From the IMG/VR virus record IMGVR_UViG_2778261176_000007, positions 1 through 21,023 of that record: a stretch of 21,023 bases of DNA; one strand, written 5' to 3'. Below the pieces are notes generated by a model. That model saw nothing but the letters and a program-made list of their open reading frames with translations, was not told where the DNA came from and ran no database searches. A program made the position numbers and the translations under genes. Numbering within the stretch: position 1 is the first letter of the stretch; each line of letters starts with the position of its first letter. Shown here piece after piece: positions 1,291 through 10,760 of the stretch. The DNA comes from a virus. Taxonomy: Duplodnaviria; Heunggongvirae; Uroviricota; Caudoviricetes.

Positions 1291-1773
1291 CTATCTGGTC
1301 AGGGTGTCGTACTGTTTTTCGCAGACTCTTCCGGCTTCGGCTGCCCGGTCAGCATACTCTGCCAGTTGTCTATTTCTCTCGAGAGATTTGCTGAACACGT
1401 CGGCAAGCAAAACTCCGGTGTCTGCGGCTGACGACCCAGCGCCGACAATGGCGTTATAGTGCCTGAGCTGCTCACGGATGGCAACGAGCTGTTGCTGCAA
1501 CCGGCCAGCGCGAGCGGCAGCATCAAGAGCATCATTGCGCGCCTGGTCGATCCTCTGCTGCGCTTCACGTTCATTGATCGATTTCTCCTGTTCGTAGTGC
1601 TGACGAATTCTCTCATCTTCGGTTTTGCGGTCTTCTTTCGCCTGTGCATACCCAGCGTCGTACTGACGACTGCCGTGCACATTCCAGGCAACAACTCCTG
1701 ATATGACCAGAACAGCAAGCACCGCCATGATAATCAACTGTTTACGGTATGCTTTTACGAATGACCAGATCAT
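1291..1773 (-). CDS. Rz-like i-spanin (inner-membrane spanin subunit)
   Basis: 160 aa with an N-terminal TM anchor ([18 protein letters not shown]) and a charged coiled-coil periplasmic domain. Its start ATG overlaps the endolysin stop (ATGA at 1770-1773). A lipoprotein ORF is embedded in the +1 frame. Confidence 0.75.
1299..1574 (-). CDS. Rz1-like o-spanin (outer-membrane lipoprotein) embedded in Rz
   Basis: Internal ATG at 1572-1574 preceded by GGAG at about 10 nt. Signal peptide [26 protein letters not shown] with an LAGC lipobox, followed by a Pro/Ser-rich mature part. Lies wholly inside Rz in a different frame. The start could instead be the MMLLML Met at 1535. Confidence 0.55.
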   Translation of the reverse strand: MNVKRSRGSTRRAMMLLMLPLALAGCSNSSLPSVSSSGTITPLSALGRQPQTPEFCLPTCSANLSREIDNWQSMLTGQPKPEESAKNSTTP

Positions 1774-2399
1774 ACAGCCAGCACCTTACTGGCAGTGACG
1801 TACCGCGCGCGCCGGTCGTCGATGCCATTCCTGCCACCATTGATAATCAGAGTTACACGTGCAATATCGCCGGTATACTTCATGCAACCTTTGCTGGAGA
1901 AGAACCACGCCGCGCTACGAGCCGCGTATTCGTCCTGCGCCAACAGTTCAGGATTCTCCAGCAGGTCCACTTTCAGGCCGTTTCCGCAATCACGATAGTT
2001 ATTCAAACCGGTAATCTGGATAAGTCCGCGGCCACGGTAATTCCAGCCATCGCCGGGGGCATTGTTCCCCATGCGTTTGCTGTACACCAGATTGGCAATC
2101 GCTCGCTGGCGCTCGAGTGGCAATGGTGGTTCACCAGCATGGCGACCCAGTGCATTAGCCTGCCCCTGAGTGAGACGCCCAGCCCGAACGAAGTTAGCCA
2201 GTCCGCTGACACTGTAGTTGAAATTCTCCTGCAACCTGGTGAAGCCCCCAGACTCATGCCCGACTTGAGCAATAAACATTGCCTGATCTTCTGCTTTGCT
2301 GATACCAAACTCTTTCATCGCAGAAGTTATATGCGAGAACCAGCGTGCGGCCAGCGCCTCGCTAATACCAGCAGCTCGCTGGAATTGTTTAATCTCCAT
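1770..2399 (-). CDS. Endolysin, glycoside hydrolase family 19 (chitinase-like lysozyme)
   Basis: 209 aa starting [21 protein letters not shown]. Carries GH19-type motifs ([28 protein letters not shown]). GAGG SD 7 nt upstream of the ATG at 2397-2399. The longer track ORF (to 2630) is a frame shadow of the upstream holin gene. Confidence 0.9.
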
Positions 2400-2697
2400 G
2401 TTTAGACCTCGATATTTTGAAAATCTGAACAACGTTACCGCGTGTTTTAATAACCGCGGCAAGCATGACAGCGTTGATAATGACCTCAGATAAATCCACA
2501 GCCATTGGCGTGCGTAACCAGATTGCATAGACGACACGAACAGGAATACTGGCCGCAGCAACAATAAGGAAATAAGCAAGCCACCCTCCCCATCTTCGAT
2601 GTTGAGAGCCGTTACGCCGGAATGTGACAACGCGAATTGCTATGCCAGTACAAATAACTGCATTGGTGATAAGCAAAAAAAACTCATGCGTTACCAT
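2389..2697 (-). CDS. Holin-like small membrane protein (lysis cassette)
   Basis: 102 aa with 2-3 predicted TM segments and a charged C-terminus. Overlaps the endolysin start by 11 nt and the upstream membrane-protein gene by 14 nt. Position immediately upstream of the endolysin. Confidence 0.55.
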
Positions 2698-3088
2698 CGT
2701 CTTTTCTCCCCGGAATTAAATCGCGTGGATTGTCTGAACGGTGGTAGAGCCATATACCAATACGCACAGCGACAATTGCTGACACGAATGCGCCAGCAGA
2801 GAAAACAATCCCTTTTTCAAAAGAGTCCTGCGTGATGGTAGGGATCAGGCTGGCTATGCCGATAAGAATTGATGCTGCTGGTTTGTAGAAAAGAAGTCCA
2901 CAGAGAAAGCTAAGCATCGATAAGAGTACGCGACGATGAATTGGGTACTCTACCGCAGAGGTAACAAAAATTACCGCACCAGCAAGAGCACCGAGCGCCA
3001 CCTCTGGCGGAACGCCTACGATAACTGCAGCAAGAGAGCTCACACTAAGCCATTGATTTAAAGAATCAGTAGTTAGATGGGCTGACAT
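2684..3088 (-). CDS. Holin / lysis-associated multi-TM membrane protein
   Basis: About 134 aa from the ATG at 3086-3088 (the track ORF begins at a GTG at 3097). Three to four hydrophobic helices and a charged C-terminal tail ([18 protein letters not shown]). First gene of the lysis cassette. Confidence 0.5.
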   Translation of the reverse strand: MSAHLTTDSLNQWLSVSSLAAVIVGVPPEVALGALAGAVIFVTSAVEYPIHRRVLLSMLSFLCGLLFYKPAASILIGIASLIPTITQDSFEKGIVFSAGAFVSAIVAVRIGIWLYHRSDNPRDLIPGRKDDGNA

Positions 3089-3317
3089 AATGAACACCGT
3101 TTATTACGCATAACAATCTCCTTACTATTGAAGATTCACACATAATAAACCATTTAAGGATAATAGTTACCTCAAAACGCTGTATTTCTACCTTCTACGG
3201 CAATGAAAATTTCGTTCAGAAAATGGTCTAGTGTACCTCTCAGTCACAATTAAAGAAGAAAGAAGCCGAACTTACTTCGTAATAAGCAAGCCGGCTACTA
3301 AGATTAATCCTCAATAT

Positions 3318-6074
3318 TTAGCTACTTTCAAGCATTGCAAGACGTGATTCTATTTTTTCGATTCTTCTACGCAAATAAGCTGACTCAAGCCATAAACACT
3401 GGTCAGTACGGATACCCCACCTATTTCCAGCCTTGCAAACCAGAGTTCGCTCTTCTGTTTCGTATTCTTCTTCCATCTCAATTTCGACGCCATCCACAAC
3501 TTTAGTGATCATCCTTACCGCCATCACTGGCGCGTATTTATCATCCCATTCATCGTAACAGAGAAGGCCAAATCTGGTTCCATCAATCCCATGCGCGAGG
3601 AAAGTGTCTCTCACTTGTTGTGCTATAACACCAAAATGCCAGCGGGCACCATCTCCCTTTTCCCTGACGGCATCAAGCCAGCGAAAAGCTACAATCCTGA
3701 TATCTCCCCATGCATCCAGAATTGCATCACCTTCATAACCACGAGACATATACAAGCTGAGCTCACTTGTACTAATCGGTTCACTTTTTTCTCTACCATC
3801 TGATGTGTTTATCGAACCGTTCGCAGAATAAACCTGTGCCCATCTAAATGATGGTGCACCAAGAGATTTGCTGTTATCAATAATTGGTGAAAAATTACCT
3901 TTAATAGCAATATTTCCAGAGTCGCCGAATATATTAATAACTGCAGAGTCATCACCATGGTTTTTTACGCTTAAGTTTCTTGATGAAATATTTATATCTT
4001 TGTTATATCCACTAACATTAATCCATCTTTTACCATCAATGTGATACCCGTAAATATTTCCGTTTGATTGTTCGTCAGGTGACTCTCTAAGAACAATAGC
4101 ATCTACTCCAGACGACCATTGTATTTTTGTATCTGTAGGCCTCCAGTTCTTTATAATGAACGAACCATCAGTAAACTCCGTTTTTATTTGTCTATTGTCT
4201 ACAAATGCGTCTCTTGGTTTAAACTCACTTGTGTTAACGCTGCTCTGAAGATCAGAAGCAAAAAATCTAAGATTTCCTGTATAACCCTTAGTCTCGGTCA
4301 GGTTATACGCAATCATAATTCCATTTTCAAACTCAGATGATGTTATTTTAACATCACGGCAATCACCAAAAATGCAATTTCCTTTATCAAATGTTGTTTG
4401 AGCTTTGAATTTATCAAACCTTAAATTACGAACAGGGAAACCATCAACCTCTAATGCAAAGGATGCAGGAAGGCCAAAGTATTCTGATGGCTTACCTGAT
4501 GTATGATCAAGAGTAGTGGCTACTGTATTCTCAAAAACAGTCCCGCTAAAATTATTACCAATTGACGGAAACCTGATTACACTTATTGTACCTTGTATTT
4601 CAGGAGAAATACCAGATAGTGTGATGTTAGCTCCATCAAATGATGCATCTGAATACGTATATACTGATTCACTGCCAGCAATTTTAAACTGTTTAACTGA
4701 AGTTATTCTCATCGACTTTTTATGTTTAAATGTCACTGAGCTTTCAGTATTACTTACAAGATCAATCTGAGGGCTATTCCTTATCGCGATTCCTGACTGG
4801 ACATAAACGTTATTAAAGTGCGTTTTTTCAGGATTTCCCTTCATTGAAAGGCTACCGTCATTTTCTGTCAGTAGTAGTCCTTTTACCCTCCAATAGCCGA
4901 CAATCTGTACGTTATCAATAACTGAATCACAGCTATCGTATACATGCAACCCTATATCCCAGTTATCACCCAATGAATAAGAATCAGGGTTATTGTATCC
5001 TTCAATACCATTTTTACTTACCATTATTCTCAGATTGCGTAACTGTGATGCCCTGTTGATACTAACAGCTACGCTCATGGCTTTTGGTGTAGCAGGAGTA
5101 ACACCTACAGAATCTTCATTTGTAAACTCAGTGAACTTACAAGATATCCCTTCAACAATTTTAACTGGTCTTTCATTAGAGATGTTAAAAAAATATTTGT
5201 TTTTTTCTCCATCACCAGTAAATATAAGATGGGTTCCTTTACTCCAACTTTTTAATAATCTTTCAGGCGCTGGTCTATATGTATCCCAATAATCAATGCC
5301 ATCACCAATTAAAGACACTCCAGGAGGCACATCTATGTTCTTAGAAATCATCCATTTACCTGCAGGTATTCTAACGACACTTGCACCAGAATTTATCGCA
5401 TTAATTAACCATTCAGACGCATCAACTTCAAAATTTAATGCAGCATATCTTTGCTCAAACGGAACAAAATCAAGAGCGTTAACGTTATCCCGCATCTTAT
5501 CCTGGAACGTTCGGTATACTGCTCCAGAACCATACTGAATAAACCAACCAAAACCACCAACAACTCCGGCGATTGCAGCATCAACATAATTGCGCATTGA
5601 TCGATTATTTACAGCATCCTGCTCAAGTGATGGATCTGCAAGGTTAGAAATTTTGTTTTGCTTTGCATCGTAATATTTTGCAAGCAAAGATGGTTTCATC
5701 AATGCACGTCTGAACCATCCAAAACATTGCTGGATCAGCATCGTCAGGTAGTCAAATGCATCCTCATGAACTTCGGGGAAAAATTTTCCCTGATTGCGAA
5801 GATCAGTCTCCTGCACCACATCAAGCACACGCTCTATCGTGATTCTCCAGCCAGCAGCAAGCGGCGACGGAAGAACCACAGAACCGCCACTATAAGTGCC
5901 CGCCCCTGTTACCGTATAACCGGTATCCAGAACCAATTCTGTTACGTTCCCGTTCAGGTCAGACACCTGAACAACCAGGTCGGATTTTTTGAAAATACGG
6001 AAGGTATACGGAAATGATGTCGTAGTGCCGTTACCTGTGTATTCGTTGTGGTCAACTTCGGTTGAGACCGTCAT
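3318..6074 (-). CDS. Tailspike / tail fiber with T7 gp17-like N-terminal adaptor, central putative depolymerase domain and C-terminal intramolecular chaperone (peptidase S74-like)
   Basis: 918 aa. The N-terminal 120 aa align by eye with the T7 gp17 N-terminus (YTGNGTTTSFPYTFRIF versus YQLDGSNRDFNIPFEY). The central region is AT-rich (about 3800-5650). The last 160 aa or so (SDGREKSEPISTSELSL...WHFGVIAQQVRDTF...) resemble the autocleaving chaperone domain of endosialidase-type tailspikes. GGAGA SD upstream of the ATG at 6072-6074. Confidence 0.9.
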   Translation of the reverse strand: MTVSTEVDHNEYTGNGTTTSFPYTFRIFKKSDLVVQVSDLNGNVTELVLDTGYTVTGAGTYSGGSVVLPSPLAAGWRITIERVLDVVQETDLRNQGKFFPEVHEDAFDYLTMLIQQCFGWFRRALMKPSLLAKYYDAKQNKISNLADPSLEQDAVNNRSMRNYVDAAIAGVVGGFGWFIQYGSGAVYRTFQDKMRDNVNALDFVPFEQRYAALNFEVDASEWLINAINSGASVVRIPAGKWMISKNIDVPPGVSLIGDGIDYWDTYRPAPERLLKSWSKGTHLIFTGDGEKNKYFFNISNERPVKIVEGISCKFTEFTNEDSVGVTPATPKAMSVAVSINRASQLRNLRIMVSKNGIEGYNNPDSYSLGDNWDIGLHVYDSCDSVIDNVQIVGYWRVKGLLLTENDGSLSMKGNPEKTHFNNVYVQSGIAIRNSPQIDLVSNTESSVTFKHKKSMRITSVKQFKIAGSESVYTYSDASFDGANITLSGISPEIQGTISVIRFPSIGNNFSGTVFENTVATTLDHTSGKPSEYFGLPASFALEVDGFPVRNLRFDKFKAQTTFDKGNCIFGDCRDVKITSSEFENGIMIAYNLTETKGYTGNLRFFASDLQSSVNTSEFKPRDAFVDNRQIKTEFTDGSFIIKNWRPTDTKIQWSSGVDAIVLRESPDEQSNGNIYGYHIDGKRWINVSGYNKDINISSRNLSVKNHGDDSAVINIFGDSGNIAIKGNFSPIIDNSKSLGAPSFRWAQVYSANGSINTSDGREKSEPISTSELSLYMSRGYEGDAILDAWGDIRIVAFRWLDAVREKGDGARWHFGVIAQQVRDTFLAHGIDGTRFGLLCYDEWDDKYAPVMAVRMITKVVDGVEIEMEEEYETEERTLVCKAGNRWGIRTDQCLWLESAYLRRRIEKIESRLAMLESS

Positions 6075-6177
6075 GTTAAATCTCCAGATAGTCGCAGCAC
6101 CCGTTGCGCCGCATATCTGGTTATTCTATTACCTGAAAAACCACATATGGATAGAAAGACTGTAAATACGAATAGAT

Positions 6178-6194
6178 ATTACCTTTCGGGTAAT
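6178..6194. promoter_or_regulatory. 17-bp palindromic operator-like site ATTACC-TTTCG-GGTAAT (copy 1 of 5)
   Basis: Perfect 6-bp inverted arms with a 5-bp spacer. Located in the divergent region between the tailspike gene and the small Ant-C-like gene. Confidence 0.55.
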
Positions 6195-6232
6195 TTGCAA
6201 AACGTGCTGGATAGCAAACAAATTATTTGCTA

Positions 6233-6248
6233 CTGTATAAATATACAG
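6233..6248. promoter_or_regulatory. LexA (SOS) box CTGT-ATAAATAT-ACAG
   Basis: taCTGTATAAATATACAGtt differs from the LexA consensus CTGTATATATATACAG at one central position. It sits 22 nt upstream of the ATG at 6270 and contains a TATAAAT -10-like hexamer. Confidence 0.6.
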
Positions 6249-6269
6249 TTATTGCATGGAGAAGATAAG

Positions 6270-6527
6270 ATGCAGCAGTATCACTATCCACTGGAAGACG
6301 GATTTACCGAAAGGATTCACACGCCGGGAGGCGTCAGATCACTAGTGGAGGGATCGCACTTGATGAAATTACTCCGGGATCTCGATAAGGATGGATTTAA
6401 TGTCGATGGCCCACTTGCCGAACTGACTGCACTGATTAACTACGTCACCAGCTCACAGATGTCTATGCGGGATCTGCAAACACATCTCGACTATTGTGCC
6501 GAACAATTACGAAAACAAACCAGATAA
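6270..6527 (+). CDS. Small stand-alone protein homologous to the C-terminal domain of the two Bro-N antirepressors (candidate SOS-controlled antirepressor-like factor)
   Basis: 85 aa from the internal ATG (the track ORF starts at 6147 but would cover the operator palindrome and LexA box). GGAG SD 9 nt upstream. Alignable by eye to the Ant C-termini (LAELTALINYVTSSQMSMRDLQTHLDY versus AAELTTMFCYIVGVSKCLRDIQTHAEY). Confidence 0.5.
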   Translation: MQQYHYPLEDGFTERIHTPGGVRSLVEGSHLMKLLRDLDKDGFNVDGPLAELTALINYVTSSQMSMRDLQTHLDYCAEQLRKQTR

Positions 6528-6556
6528 GGTTTGCAATTACCAAGTGGAGTGCTTAT

Positions 6557-6575
6557 ATTTACCTTTGCGGTAAAT
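6557..6575. promoter_or_regulatory. Palindromic operator-like site ATTTACC-TTTGC-GGTAAAT (copy 2 of 5), at the start of the ant1 leader
   Basis: Perfect 7-bp arms. About 45 nt upstream of the conserved structured leader element. Confidence 0.55.
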
Positions 6576-6600
6576 TTACATCGCACTCCTCTTGTGCCAT

Positions 6601-6685
6601 AGTAATCGGGCACTGGCAAAATCCAGTGCCGGGATTGGCGTCCCGGATTACTAAAAGGCGCATTCACCGCGCAAGCGGTTTTTTT
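6601..6685 (+). ncRNA. Structured leader RNA element upstream of ant1 (c4-like antisense-RNA candidate): closing stem, two hairpins, and a hairpin plus U7 terminator
   Basis: Stem AGTAATC (6601-6607) pairs with GATTACT (6646-6652). Hairpin A is GGCACTGG-caaaat-CCAGTGCC (6609-6630). Hairpin B is CCGGGA-ttggcg-TCCCGG (6629-6646). Terminator-like ACCGC-gcaa-GCGGT followed by T7 (6666-6685). The stems are conserved in the inverted ant2 copy while the loops differ (compensatory pattern). Confidence 0.4.
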
Positions 6686-6842
6686 ATGCGTATAGCACGG
6701 CCACATTCGTATTATGGTGGGCTGTGTGGGGGCACCGAAAGGTGCGCCGGGTCCTTTTAGCCGGTTACGCCAACCCTGCACAGCTCACCACCAACCGATT
6801 GGCGTCGGTAGTGGTGATTAACCAGACTAAAAGGTAACCACT

Positions 6843-7538
6843 ATGACAGCTACAAAAAGCACGTCCATTTTTTCTTTCGAATCCCAAGCCGATATACGAG
6901 TAATCGTCATTAATGGTGAGCCATGGTTTATCGCTTCAGATGTTTGTCGGGCTATAGGCATAGCAAACCATCGAGATGCTGTTCGAAAACTTGATGATGA
7001 TGAGAAGGGCGTCGCTTCAACCGACACCCCTGGCGGTGAGCAAGAATCGATCATCATCTCCGAGTCAGGCCTCTACACACTGATCCTCCGCTGCCGCGAC
7101 GCAGTGACACCAGGCACTATCCCCTACCGCTTTCGTAAATGGGTTACAGGTGAGGTTCTTCCTCAGATCCGCCGCACCGGAAGCTACATTAAAAACTCGC
7201 TCCCGCAGGAAGAACGCATAAAGATGGTTGCCGACCAGGTAGCCAACGCCACGGCGTCAGCAGTAATGCAGGCGATGAAGATAGAGAACAAAACCTACAG
7301 CGCCCCGCTGAAGCCCGGCTACCGCAGTTTGATTCACTCGCCGTCTGGTGTTCTCGGCCTGACGGAGAACTCACTGCTGATGAATCTGCTGAACCAGTTA
7401 CAGGAAGACGGGCACGACGTATCGGGCGCGGCGGCGGAACTGACCACCATGTTCTGCTACATCGTCGGTGTGAGTAAATGCCTGCGTGATATCCAGACCC
7501 ACGCGGAATACATCAACGACAAGGCAGGGGTCTTCTGA
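6843..7538 (+). CDS. Antirepressor-like protein with Bro-N N-terminal domain (ant1)
   Basis: 231 aa. N-terminus IFSFESQADIRVIVINGEPWFIASDVCRAIGI...ESGLYTLILR is a Bro-N-type motif. AAAGGT SD before the ATG. The C-terminal half is nearly identical (about 95 percent nucleotide identity) to the inverted paralog at 8652-9344. Confidence 0.85.
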   Translation: MTATKSTSIFSFESQADIRVIVINGEPWFIASDVCRAIGIANHRDAVRKLDDDEKGVASTDTPGGEQESIIISESGLYTLILRCRDAVTPGTIPYRFRKWVTGEVLPQIRRTGSYIKNSLPQEERIKMVADQVANATASAVMQAMKIENKTYSAPLKPGYRSLIHSPSGVLGLTENSLLMNLLNQLQEDGHDVSGAAAELTTMFCYIVGVSKCLRDIQTHAEYINDKAGVF

Positions 7539-8651: not shown

Positions 8652-9344
8652 TCAGAAGAACCCTGCCTTGTCGTTGATGTATTCCGCGTGCGTCTGGATA
8701 TCACGCAGGCATTTGCTCACACCGACGATGTAGCAGAACATGGTGGTCAGCTCCGCCGCCGCACCCGATACGTCGTGCCCGTCTTCCTGTAACTGGTTCA
8801 GCAGATTCATCAGCAGTGAGTTCTCCGTCAGGCCGAGAACACCAGACGGAGAATGAATCAGGCTGCGGTAGCCGGGCTTCAGCGGGGAGCTGTAGGTTTT
8901 GTTCTCTATCTTCATTGCCTGCATCACTGCTGATGCTGTGGCGTTGGCTACCTGGTCGGCAACCATCTTTATGCGTTCTTCCTGAGGGAGCGAGTTTTTA
9001 ATGTAACTTCCGGTGCGGCGGATCTGAGGAAGAACCTCACCTGTAACCCATTCAAGAAATCTGAATGCTCTCGTTCCCTCAGTCATTGCCTCTTTGCAAC
9101 GCAGAATAAGGATGTAGAGACCTGATTCTGAAACGATGGATAGTTCTTGTATTCCACCAGGGGTCTGTATTGAATACAGCCCCTTTTTGTTCCAGCCTTT
9201 TTTATCAAGTTTTCTCGCTTGTGTAACATCAATATTCAAAGCATTGCACACATCTTTGGTGACAAACCAAGGTTCTCCGTCAATCATGAACATACGGATC
9301 TGGCAGGATGACTCAAAGGAAAAGATGGAAGGTTTGGTATTCAT
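8652..9344 (-). CDS. Antirepressor-like protein with Bro-N N-terminal domain (ant2), inverted paralog of ant1
   Basis: 230 aa from the ATG at 9342-9344 (the track ORF starts 15 codons upstream at a TTG). AAAGGTGA SD. The Bro-N domain has diverged from ant1 while the C-terminal 130 aa differ at only 2 residues. Confidence 0.85.
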   Translation of the reverse strand: MNTKPSIFSFESSCQIRMFMIDGEPWFVTKDVCNALNIDVTQARKLDKKGWNKKGLYSIQTPGGIQELSIVSESGLYILILRCKEAMTEGTRAFRFLEWVTGEVLPQIRRTGSYIKNSLPQEERIKMVADQVANATASAVMQAMKIENKTYSSPLKPGYRSLIHSPSGVLGLTENSLLMNLLNQLQEDGHDVSGAAAELTTMFCYIVGVSKCLRDIQTHAEYINDKAGFF

Positions 9345-9498
9345 AGCGATCACCTTTGTAGTTAGGTTAATCACCACCGCTGAGACCAATCAGATGGTGG
9401 TGAACTGTGCAGAGTTGGTCTTACCGGCTACAAAGGAACCCGGCGCACCTTTCGGTGCCCCCACACAGCCCACCATAGAATAGGTGCGCTTTACACAT

Positions 9499-9773: not shown

Positions 9774-10172
9774 GTGCCATTCCACGGCGTAGAACTTTAT
9801 GTTGTCAATCACAACGGCGAACCGTACACCCCAATGAAACCTATCGTTGAGGGAATGGGGCTAGACTGGAAATCTCAACATAAGAAGATTTCTCAACGCT
9901 TCTCGAAGGGTATGGTGGAAATCACCATACCTTCTGCCGGTGGGGTGCAAGCCATGATTTGTATGGCTTTACGAAAATTGGCAGCTTGGTTGAACAGCAT
10001 CAGCCCTAACAAAGTCCGCCCTGAAATCCGCGATAAGGTAATCCAGTATCAGGAAGAGTGTGATGATGTGCTCTATGAGTACTGGACTAAAGGCCATGTG
10101 GTTAACCCGCGCAAAGCTAAAAAGGTGTTGCCGGGTAAAATCACTACTGAGCAACAGGAGGTATACACTTAA
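9774..10172 (+). CDS. Phage antirepressor-like protein (P22 AR N-terminal-like domain), hypothetical
   Basis: 132 aa. The motif LRKLAAWLNSISPNKVRPEIRDKVIQYQEECDDVLYEYW resembles antirepressor N-terminal domains as I recall them. The first in-frame start is a GTG with no clear SD, so the start is uncertain (an internal ATG lies 20 codons in). Confidence 0.5.
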   Translation: MPFHGVELYVVNHNGEPYTPMKPIVEGMGLDWKSQHKKISQRFSKGMVEITIPSAGGVQAMICMALRKLAAWLNSISPNKVRPEIRDKVIQYQEECDDVLYEYWTKGHVVNPRKAKKVLPGKITTEQQEVYT

Positions 10173-10232: not shown

Positions 10233-10760
10233 ATGGAAGTTTTCTTAATCATCGTCGGCATCGTGATTATTAATTTTGTTTTTTTATTTATTGCAAAAAA
10301 ACAAAAAAGTAACGATATGCATGTTTCTACAACTGATGATCTTACCTTTGTAGAGCATGCACTGAATGTATCAGGATATAAACTCACTCCATACGGAGCT
10401 GGTGTATCACTCATGTCTTTAAGTAACGGTTTTTCAAAAGAAGAAACATTTTCACATATAGCTTTGATGGCTCTTTCTCAACACGCCAAAGTCGCAGGTA
10501 GTGACGCAATTGAGCTTAGTAAAGTTAGCATTCGTGCGATGTCGATAGCTGAAAACTTAACTAAATTATTCAGGAAAGGTCTTATTCGATCAGAAATATA
10601 TAAAAATGATTTGAATGCTATCATGGCTGTCAGCACAATTAATGAAAACCAAGAGGATTGGATTTCCATAGTTCTGGAAAGCAATAGCACATCTAACAAG
10701 GATACTATTGCTTTGCCGATAAGTGCAGAAGCTTCTTTAGAAGCCATAAACAGCCATTGA
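10233..10760 (+). CDS. Membrane-anchored hypothetical protein (moron; candidate superinfection-exclusion or abortive-infection factor)
   Basis: 175 aa. N-terminal TM helix (VFLIIVGIVIINFVFLFIA) followed by KKQK, then a soluble domain. GAGG SD 7 nt upstream. Strongly AT-rich coding sequence. Convergent with the structural operon. Confidence 0.65.
   Translation: MEVFLIIVGIVIINFVFLFIAKKQKSNDMHVSTTDDLTFVEHALNVSGYKLTPYGAGVSLMSLSNGFSKEETFSHIALMALSQHAKVAGSDAIELSKVSIRAMSIAENLTKLFRKGLIRSEIYKNDLNAIMAVSTINENQEDWISIVLESNSTSNKDTIALPISAEASLEAINSH

Follow-up and report, generated by a model that had tools for sequence, protein, structure and literature searches.

A mosaic tailspike with a probably K14-directed central module in an epsilon15-like prophage of Escherichia coli

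It is textbook knowledge that tailspikes can be modular and their receptor-binding domains swapped, and the architecture of adaptor, beta-helix, and S74 domain is as well established as its shuffling; most characterised beta-helix tailspikes built in this way are depolymerases. The K1-specific endosialidase tailspikes are known from K1F and the P22-like prophage CUS-3. For epsilon15-like phages, the known targets are O antigens, and epsilon15-like prophages of Escherichia coli are usually regarded as O-antigen phages. The tailspike gene described here is located at positions 3318-6074 of a DNA stretch of 21,023 nucleotides (nt), positions 1 to 21,023 of IMG/VR virus record IMGVR_UViG_2778261176_000007, which is referred to as the window. 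The window covers DNA of an epsilon15/phiV10-like E. coli prophage (Uetakevirus type), a temperate podophage inserted beside yfgI. From sequence comparisons it appears likely that the gene specifies a three-module tailspike of this podophage group with a centre directed to the K14 capsule, which is probably a depolymerase. The kind of protein is known, its specificity is probably new.

In the earlier note on this DNA, the gene was already taken for a mosaic tailspike with an AT-rich centre. Its identity is supported by a profile search, in which PHROG 1171 'tail spike protein' spanned amino acids (aa) 1-917 (E = 4.6e-299), while many other PHROGs were confined to aa 1-166/203 or aa 720-916. 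The mosaic structure is seen in three modules with separate homologies. The following features were defined (GC, G+C content):

3318-6074, minus strand: tailspike gene, intact from ATG to TAA, 918 aa (list of open reading frames (ORFs) and translation)
5466-6074, minus strand: N-terminal tail-adaptor module of the epsilon15 gp20 type, aa 1-203, GC 0.455, homologous to epsilon15-like phages
5302-5465, minus strand: helical neck and start of the beta-helix, aa 204-257, AT-rich and allele-specific
4200-5378, minus strand: predicted right-handed parallel beta-helix, aa ~233-625, from an AlphaFold2 model
3838-5301, minus strand: exchanged block, aa 258-745, comprising the C-terminal beta domain and the larger part of the beta-helix
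3804-3932, minus strand: conserved pre-chaperone segment, aa 715-757, with SFRWAQVYS, 3' recombination junction
3321-3803, minus strand: Peptidase_S74 intramolecular chaperone, aa 758-918, GC 0.453, PF13884
3098-3317, no strand: intergenic stretch of 220 nt downstream of the tailspike gene, travelling with the C-terminal module

Searches in complete E. coli genomes revealed the whole tailspike gene at 98.5% identity or more in 13 of them. In 16 complete genomes, just nt 3797-5301 were detected, at about 98.9%, inside a gene for a 'phage tailspike protein' of P22-like prophages. The flanks in these P22-like carriers showed no detectable DNA similarity, the N-terminus being unrelated and the S74 domain about 30% identical. 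A centre 98.9% identical in tailspikes with unrelated ends is direct evidence of exchange between unrelated phages; a recent exchange had been supposed in the earlier note from base composition. Over nt 3797-5301 there are 16 nucleotide differences, but 10 of these are found in 3808-3837, and this cluster places the true junction near 3838-3850. The block 3838-5301 is 99.5% identical at the DNA level, with two non-synonymous and five synonymous codon changes. Both junctions lie within short motifs conserved in the family, GIDYWDTYRP near aa 258 and SFRWAQ near aa 745. The P22-like K14-associated spike is therefore identical to the spike of the window in aa 258-745 but for two residues, and its hosts contain the same K14 locus. 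It differs in its P22 head-binding N-terminus (PF09008 in cluster relatives), in phage family and integration site, and in the S74 domain, which reads TSDETLK instead of TSDGREK. By descent, the closest relatives of the tailspike are epsilon15-like spikes for the N-terminal end only and these P22-like spikes for the centre only.

Among more distant homologues, in which the centre is 40-75% identical, no fewer than four types of N-terminus occur, namely P22 head-binding (PF09008), CBA120-type (PF18668), T7-type (PF03906), and epsilon15-type. Most of these homologues carry PF13884 and many carry PF12708. Relatives of the centre are also present in lytic phages, with 60% identity in phage SD2 and 52% in a Vectrevirus. 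In E. coli ECE170, OZ040490, E57, and Combat2C1 the K14-associated centre was detected twice, in an epsilon15-like and in a P22-like prophage, so that two unrelated resident prophages share one receptor module. Two spikes were also detected in the K14-locus strain O15_8X (NZ_CM182542.1, 1284277-1286222 and 1444211-1445715). The centre of its P22-like spike matches at 98.9%, that of its epsilon15-like spike is about 82% identical and could represent another, diverged allele directed to the same capsule.

The only available handle on the target was provided by the genomes hosting the module. O-antigen clusters were read in three carriers and turned out to be O83, O15, and O6, without a consistent O type. 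Searches with wzy identified only three carriers among all 35 O83 genomes, and only three among 60 listed of 100 O15 genomes. A combined query was also used, consisting of the tailspike centre and 701 nt of the polymerase gene. One particular group 2 kps region 2 is present in 28 of the 29 complete E. coli genomes with the module, compared to 108 of all 5426 genomes; module carriers and holders of this K locus together amount to 109 genomes. The association spans at least three O types, two alleles of the K locus (~100% and ~97.5%), and two prophage families. Since the O types differ but one K locus is shared by nearly all carriers, the host genomes point to a capsule, K14, and not to the O antigen as the target, two alternatives between which the earlier note had not chosen.

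The designation K14 was derived as follows. Over its whole length, region 2 of the carriers is 97.5% identical to that of JJ1886, the capsule locus of which is shown as K14 (legend of Fig. 2 in PMC10866875). The genes of this region 2 specify an epimerase, an O-acetyltransferase, and a protein in which a GT2 domain is combined with a KpsS/KpsC-like Kdo-transferase domain. This gene content fits the K14 repeat, ->6)-beta-GalNAc-(1->5)-beta-Kdo-(2-> (PMC3787102), as well as the small region 2 of K14 (PMC13171606). Capsule type K52, considered because of the O15 hosts, was rejected on three grounds: region 2 comprises three genes including the Kdo-transferase-like domain; the K14 reference genes are K14_7 and K14_8, whereas K52-specific genes extend up to K52_13 (supplement of PMC13171606); and JJ1886 is published as K14. 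The GC of the kps region 2, 0.31-0.36, is near that of the tailspike centre, a parallel which is no evidence of a common source.

The N-terminal module belongs to the epsilon15 gp20 type, as seen from homology and from synteny with TL-2011b and phiV10. Its DNA is 92-97% identical to that of epsilon15-like E. coli phages, and 74% identity, upstream gene included, was found to epsilon15-like relatives. Among the E. coli relatives, similarity at the 5' end stops variously at 5465, 5487, 5539, 5665, 5902, 5938, and 5951, and these differing stop points mark the 5' end as a site of repeated recombination. At the protein level, tailspikes of the Salmonella epsilon15-type phages E15, SPN1S, and SPC32N share 64-72% identity with the first 166-170 aa, and for spikes or fibres of Klebsiella, Pseudomonas, Xanthomonas, Pelagibacter, and Bordetella BPP-1-like podophages the value is 33-55%. 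A tblastn search detected the adaptor in 133 phage records, including SPN1S, E15, and phiV10-type phages, and the solved tailspikes Dpo31/Dpo36 match aa 1-184 (E = 1.5e-31). A T7 gp17-like N-terminus, as previously proposed, has to be replaced by the epsilon15/SPN1S/phiV10 type, since Phage_T7_tail (PF03906) gave no Pfam match in the tailspike at E <= 0.1. In precomputed Pfam annotation, PF03906 is present in two distant centre homologues, P0027 and P0057, showing that this adaptor is detectable in relatives. The spikes of epsilon15 (gp20), SPN1S, phiV10, and TL-2011b resemble that of the window in phage type, in the position of the gene by the lysis cassette, and in the adaptor of ~166-200 aa. 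Past the N-terminal part, however, there is no DNA match, and the centre and S74 module of this spike are absent from them.

Base composition changes within the gene. Calculated per 300 nt, GC lies at 0.34-0.39 between about 3750 and 5700 and at 0.43-0.49 at either end of the gene. For aa 204-759, GC is 0.359 and GC at third codon positions (GC3) 0.250, compared to 0.455 and 0.424 for aa 1-203 and 0.453 and 0.371 for aa 760-918, the last 159 codons. A two-change-point likelihood fit over 2500-7000 placed the boundaries at 3875 and 5490, separating GC values of 0.442, 0.355, and 0.457. The AT-rich centre between ends of ordinary composition is thus confirmed, but by change points its length is about 1.6 kb and not 1.8 kb as estimated before. 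The lowest GC of any 1500 nt of the window is 0.355 at 3858, and the minimum outside 2000-6500 is 0.411. GC3 is 0.249 in the centre but 0.457 in a set of eleven other phage genes from the window (chi-square p = 2e-18). The composition boundaries coincide with the homology breakpoints at 5465-5490 and 3797-3875, and because the shift is mainly at silent positions, a different ancestry fits better than an amino-acid effect. The neck, aa 204-257, with GC 0.377 and GC3 0.22, is only ~45% identical in aa to the P22-like allele and has no match in other epsilon15-like phages. An ORF of 175 aa at 10233-10760 (plus strand), between the anti-repressor genes and the gene for a 1007-aa virion protein, is as AT-rich as the tailspike centre (GC 0.352, GC3 0.29). 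It matches PHROG 21690 (function unknown), has no Pfam match, and may be a second imported cassette. Low GC is therefore not unique to the tailspike, though nothing else has the length of the tailspike centre.

To obtain information on the fold of the centre, aa 170-760 were modelled with AlphaFold2 from an alignment of 42 homologues (mean pLDDT 84.9). In the model, a short neck is helical, aa ~233-625 form a long right-handed beta-helix, and aa ~649-724 a smaller beta domain. Together with fold comparison, it suggests a right-handed parallel beta-helix of the pectin-lyase fold, in agreement with the receptor-binding domain predicted earlier. In a sequence search for solved structures no match to the centre was obtained, just the two ends matching. 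Nine acidic residues, D370, D373, E404, D406, E416, E542, D563, D574, and E583, are invariant in the 42 homologues. Beta-helix depolymerases of Klebsiella and Acinetobacter phages and the coliphage K5 lyase (7vz3, 9qrm, 6c72, 2x3h) differ from the modelled helix, with 8-17% identity; their substrates are different and no common catalytic motif is established.

At the C-terminus, PF13884 was detected above the gathering score (40.7 bits, cut-off 22) at aa 758-829, and the chaperone of the K1F endosialidase (3gw6) matches aa 709-917 (E = 4.4e-34) with its Lys aligned with K763. These matches confirm the intramolecular chaperone of roughly 160 aa assigned before; its coordinates, 3321-3803, correspond exactly to the S74 domain of 161 aa. 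The cleavage-site motif NTSDGREK occupies aa 756-763, and the Ser...Lys pair is present as S758-D-G-R-E-K763, with aa 757-759 (T588, S589, and D590 of alignment A1) nearly invariant. Self-cleavage is predicted after Ser758 with Lys763 as partner. Sequences from 3098 to 3796 matched at 99.3% or more solely in the 13 genomes with this allele, and just the first 75 nt of the stretch 3098-3317 are common to other prophages. The C-terminal module was found once, at 90%, in another P22-like spike. Judged by this distribution, it is a third module and not a conserved end of the epsilon15 group. The two 'conserved ends' described earlier are consequently of different nature: the N-terminal one is indeed common to epsilon15-like phages, but the C-terminal one, including the 220 nt downstream, is restricted to one allele (13 genomes, at least 99%). 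In E. coli FDAARGOS_1257 the orthologous tailspike gene (L002 9283-11757; 99.2% DNA identity) is annotated as a pseudogene with approximately the last 94 codons missing, which are part of the S74 chaperone.

According to the mechanism we propose, the epsilon15-type adaptor (aa 1-203) would dock the trimeric spike on the tail, while the AT-rich beta-helix and the small C-terminal beta domain (aa ~204-757) would bind a surface polysaccharide of the host and probably cleave it. The Peptidase_S74 chaperone (aa 758-918) would drive folding of the trimer and then excise itself after Ser758 by a Ser-Lys dyad. The central module would shuttle between epsilon15-like and P22-like temperate podophages by recombination at the GIDYWDTYRP and SFRWAQ linkers. 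The target of the spike is most likely the group 2 K14 capsule and not the O antigen. In function, the closest analogue is the K1 endosialidase spike, likewise a capsule-directed podophage tailspike with an exchangeable N-terminal adaptor, a C-terminal Peptidase_S74 chaperone, a conserved end of the pre-chaperone stalk (3gw6), and one catalytic module mounted on different phage chassis. However, the K1 enzyme is a beta-propeller sialidase acting on polysialic acid, whereas the K14-associated centre is a beta-helix without sequence similarity to it.

The significance of the K14 association had to be weighed against other explanations. The centre could be an O-antigen-specific endoglycosidase comparable to those of epsilon15 (gp20), phiV10, P22, and HK620, and the shift in composition would then reflect a serogroup switch. 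This would fit the phage family and the N-terminal adaptor, both known from O-antigen-specific phages, and the modelled beta-helix also matches the O-antigen tailspikes of HK620, CBA120, and Dettilon. A 98-99% identical module next to at least three unrelated O-antigen clusters, the small share of carriers among O83 and O15 genomes, and the single K locus common to 28 of 29 carriers make O-antigen specificity very unlikely, and with no consistent O type in the three carriers read it was rejected. Still more improbable is the explanation that low GC results from constraints of a beta-helix on amino acids and codons and not from foreign origin, the K14 link being an artefact of lineage sampling. 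AT-rich tailspike centres are frequent and there are near-clonal sets among the carriers, but third codon positions are the most strongly shifted (GC3 0.25 versus 0.42 and 0.37 at the ends), the boundaries of the shift coincide with homology breakpoints, the identical block is present inside a second, unrelated phage type, and carriers cover three O types and two K14 alleles.

A more serious but still unlikely alternative is that the centre binds K14, or a surface structure linked to K14, without cleaving it, either lectin-like or as an enzyme modifying the polymer, e.g. by deacetylation. No active site could be assigned from the invariant acidic residues, and the Pfam search of the tailspike revealed no glycosidase or lyase family in the protein itself, which would be compatible with a spike that only binds. 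Conversely, the nine invariant acidic residues in the helix of 42 homologues, the PF12708 scores of many homologues, and the depolymerase activity of most characterised beta-helix spikes of this architecture argue for cleavage. Besides these two negative results, several points weigh against a K14-specific depolymerase. The structure model is a monomer prediction. The K14 label was obtained from one figure legend and gene content, not from typing software, and the link to K14 was drawn from carrier genomes, not from the host of the window itself. The Fisher test for module and kps region 2 (p = 1.5e-48) ignores shared ancestry, and as several carriers are near-clonal (CREC-36/U1/U3 and CRKP-1; E20/E50/E67), this value is overstated. 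There is also one exception, GF43, a carrier without the K14 region 2; its tailspike is full-length (NZ_CP172127.1, 5034477-5037233), and it is the only such carrier lacking this region.

Taking these points together, a K14 capsule-specific receptor-binding depolymerase is the most likely function of the centre; K14 binding, depolymerase activity, the bond cleaved, and autocleavage are all features we infer. On a more far-reaching version our judgement is evenly divided: with the AT-rich module, a capsule depolymerase specific for K14 of E. coli could have been identified for the first time, which would cleave the Kdo-containing polymer, circulate between epsilon15-like and P22-like temperate phages, and reside in about a quarter of K14 genomes. 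Part of the same joint claim, and held with the same reserve, is that the bond cut would be GalNAc-(1->5)-Kdo or Kdo-(2->6)-GalNAc.

Depolymerase specificities of coliphages have been compiled for K1, K3, K5, K7, K12, K20, K26, K28-1, K28-2, K30, K31, K32, K36, K38, K39, K42, and K95, a list from which K14 is absent (PMC12488582). A preprint of 2026 reports that K14 region 2 genes help in predicting phage activity, the phage protein being unnamed. No phage enzyme assigned to K14 was found. K14 is among the top five K types of bloodstream isolates, and in E. coli bloodstream infection its estimated invasive potential ranked second (PMC13171598). ST131 and other multidrug-resistant lineages include strains with K14. 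A self-folding module binding or degrading K14 would be a candidate for use in typing, as an anti-virulence enzyme, or as a building block in the engineering of phage host range. The mosaic itself is ordinary. The probable specificity for K14 offers a lead that can be tested and is of moderate use, but there is no surprise in mechanism. The case indicates that epsilon15-like E. coli prophages can be capsule-directed, and that they exchange the central module with P22-like prophages, recombining at a pair of short conserved linkers.

The position of the tailspike gene is the standard one for epsilon15-like phages. Positions 1-1071 are occupied by the host genes yfgH and yfgI, and the identical junction is found in FDAARGOS_1257. 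The end of the prophage, located somewhere from 1072 to about 1290, is at the site it also occupies in that strain. From about 1163 onwards, identity of the window to the epsilon15-like coliphages TL-2011b and phiV10 amounts to 95-96%, variable patches excepted. Downstream of the tailspike gene and on the same strand, two holins, a GH19 endolysin, and an Rz-like spanin are encoded. On its other side, several anti-repressor genes are followed by genes for large virion proteins, including a T7 gp14-like and an SLT-domain protein. A promoter scan of 2900-6600 yielded five promoter-like sites versus 11.3 expected in shuffled sequence, i.e. no excess. In the same region, five terminator-like sites were detected versus 2.1 expected, none of them located after the tailspike gene. 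Four ORFs related to Ant/BRO-type anti-repressors are clustered within 4 kb, at 6147-6527 (plus), 6843-7538 (plus), 8652-9389 (minus), and 9774-10172 (plus). One of them is opposite in strand, one represents the C-terminal part only, and a C-terminal segment (PHROG 450/15539) is common. The ORF of the GH19 endolysin, 1770-2630 (minus), specifies 286 aa from a TTG start and overlaps the holin ORF 2389-2697. Its PHROG match starts at aa 73, and the FDAARGOS_1257 orthologue is annotated with 630 nt; the true start is probably farther downstream than that of the mechanically defined ORF.

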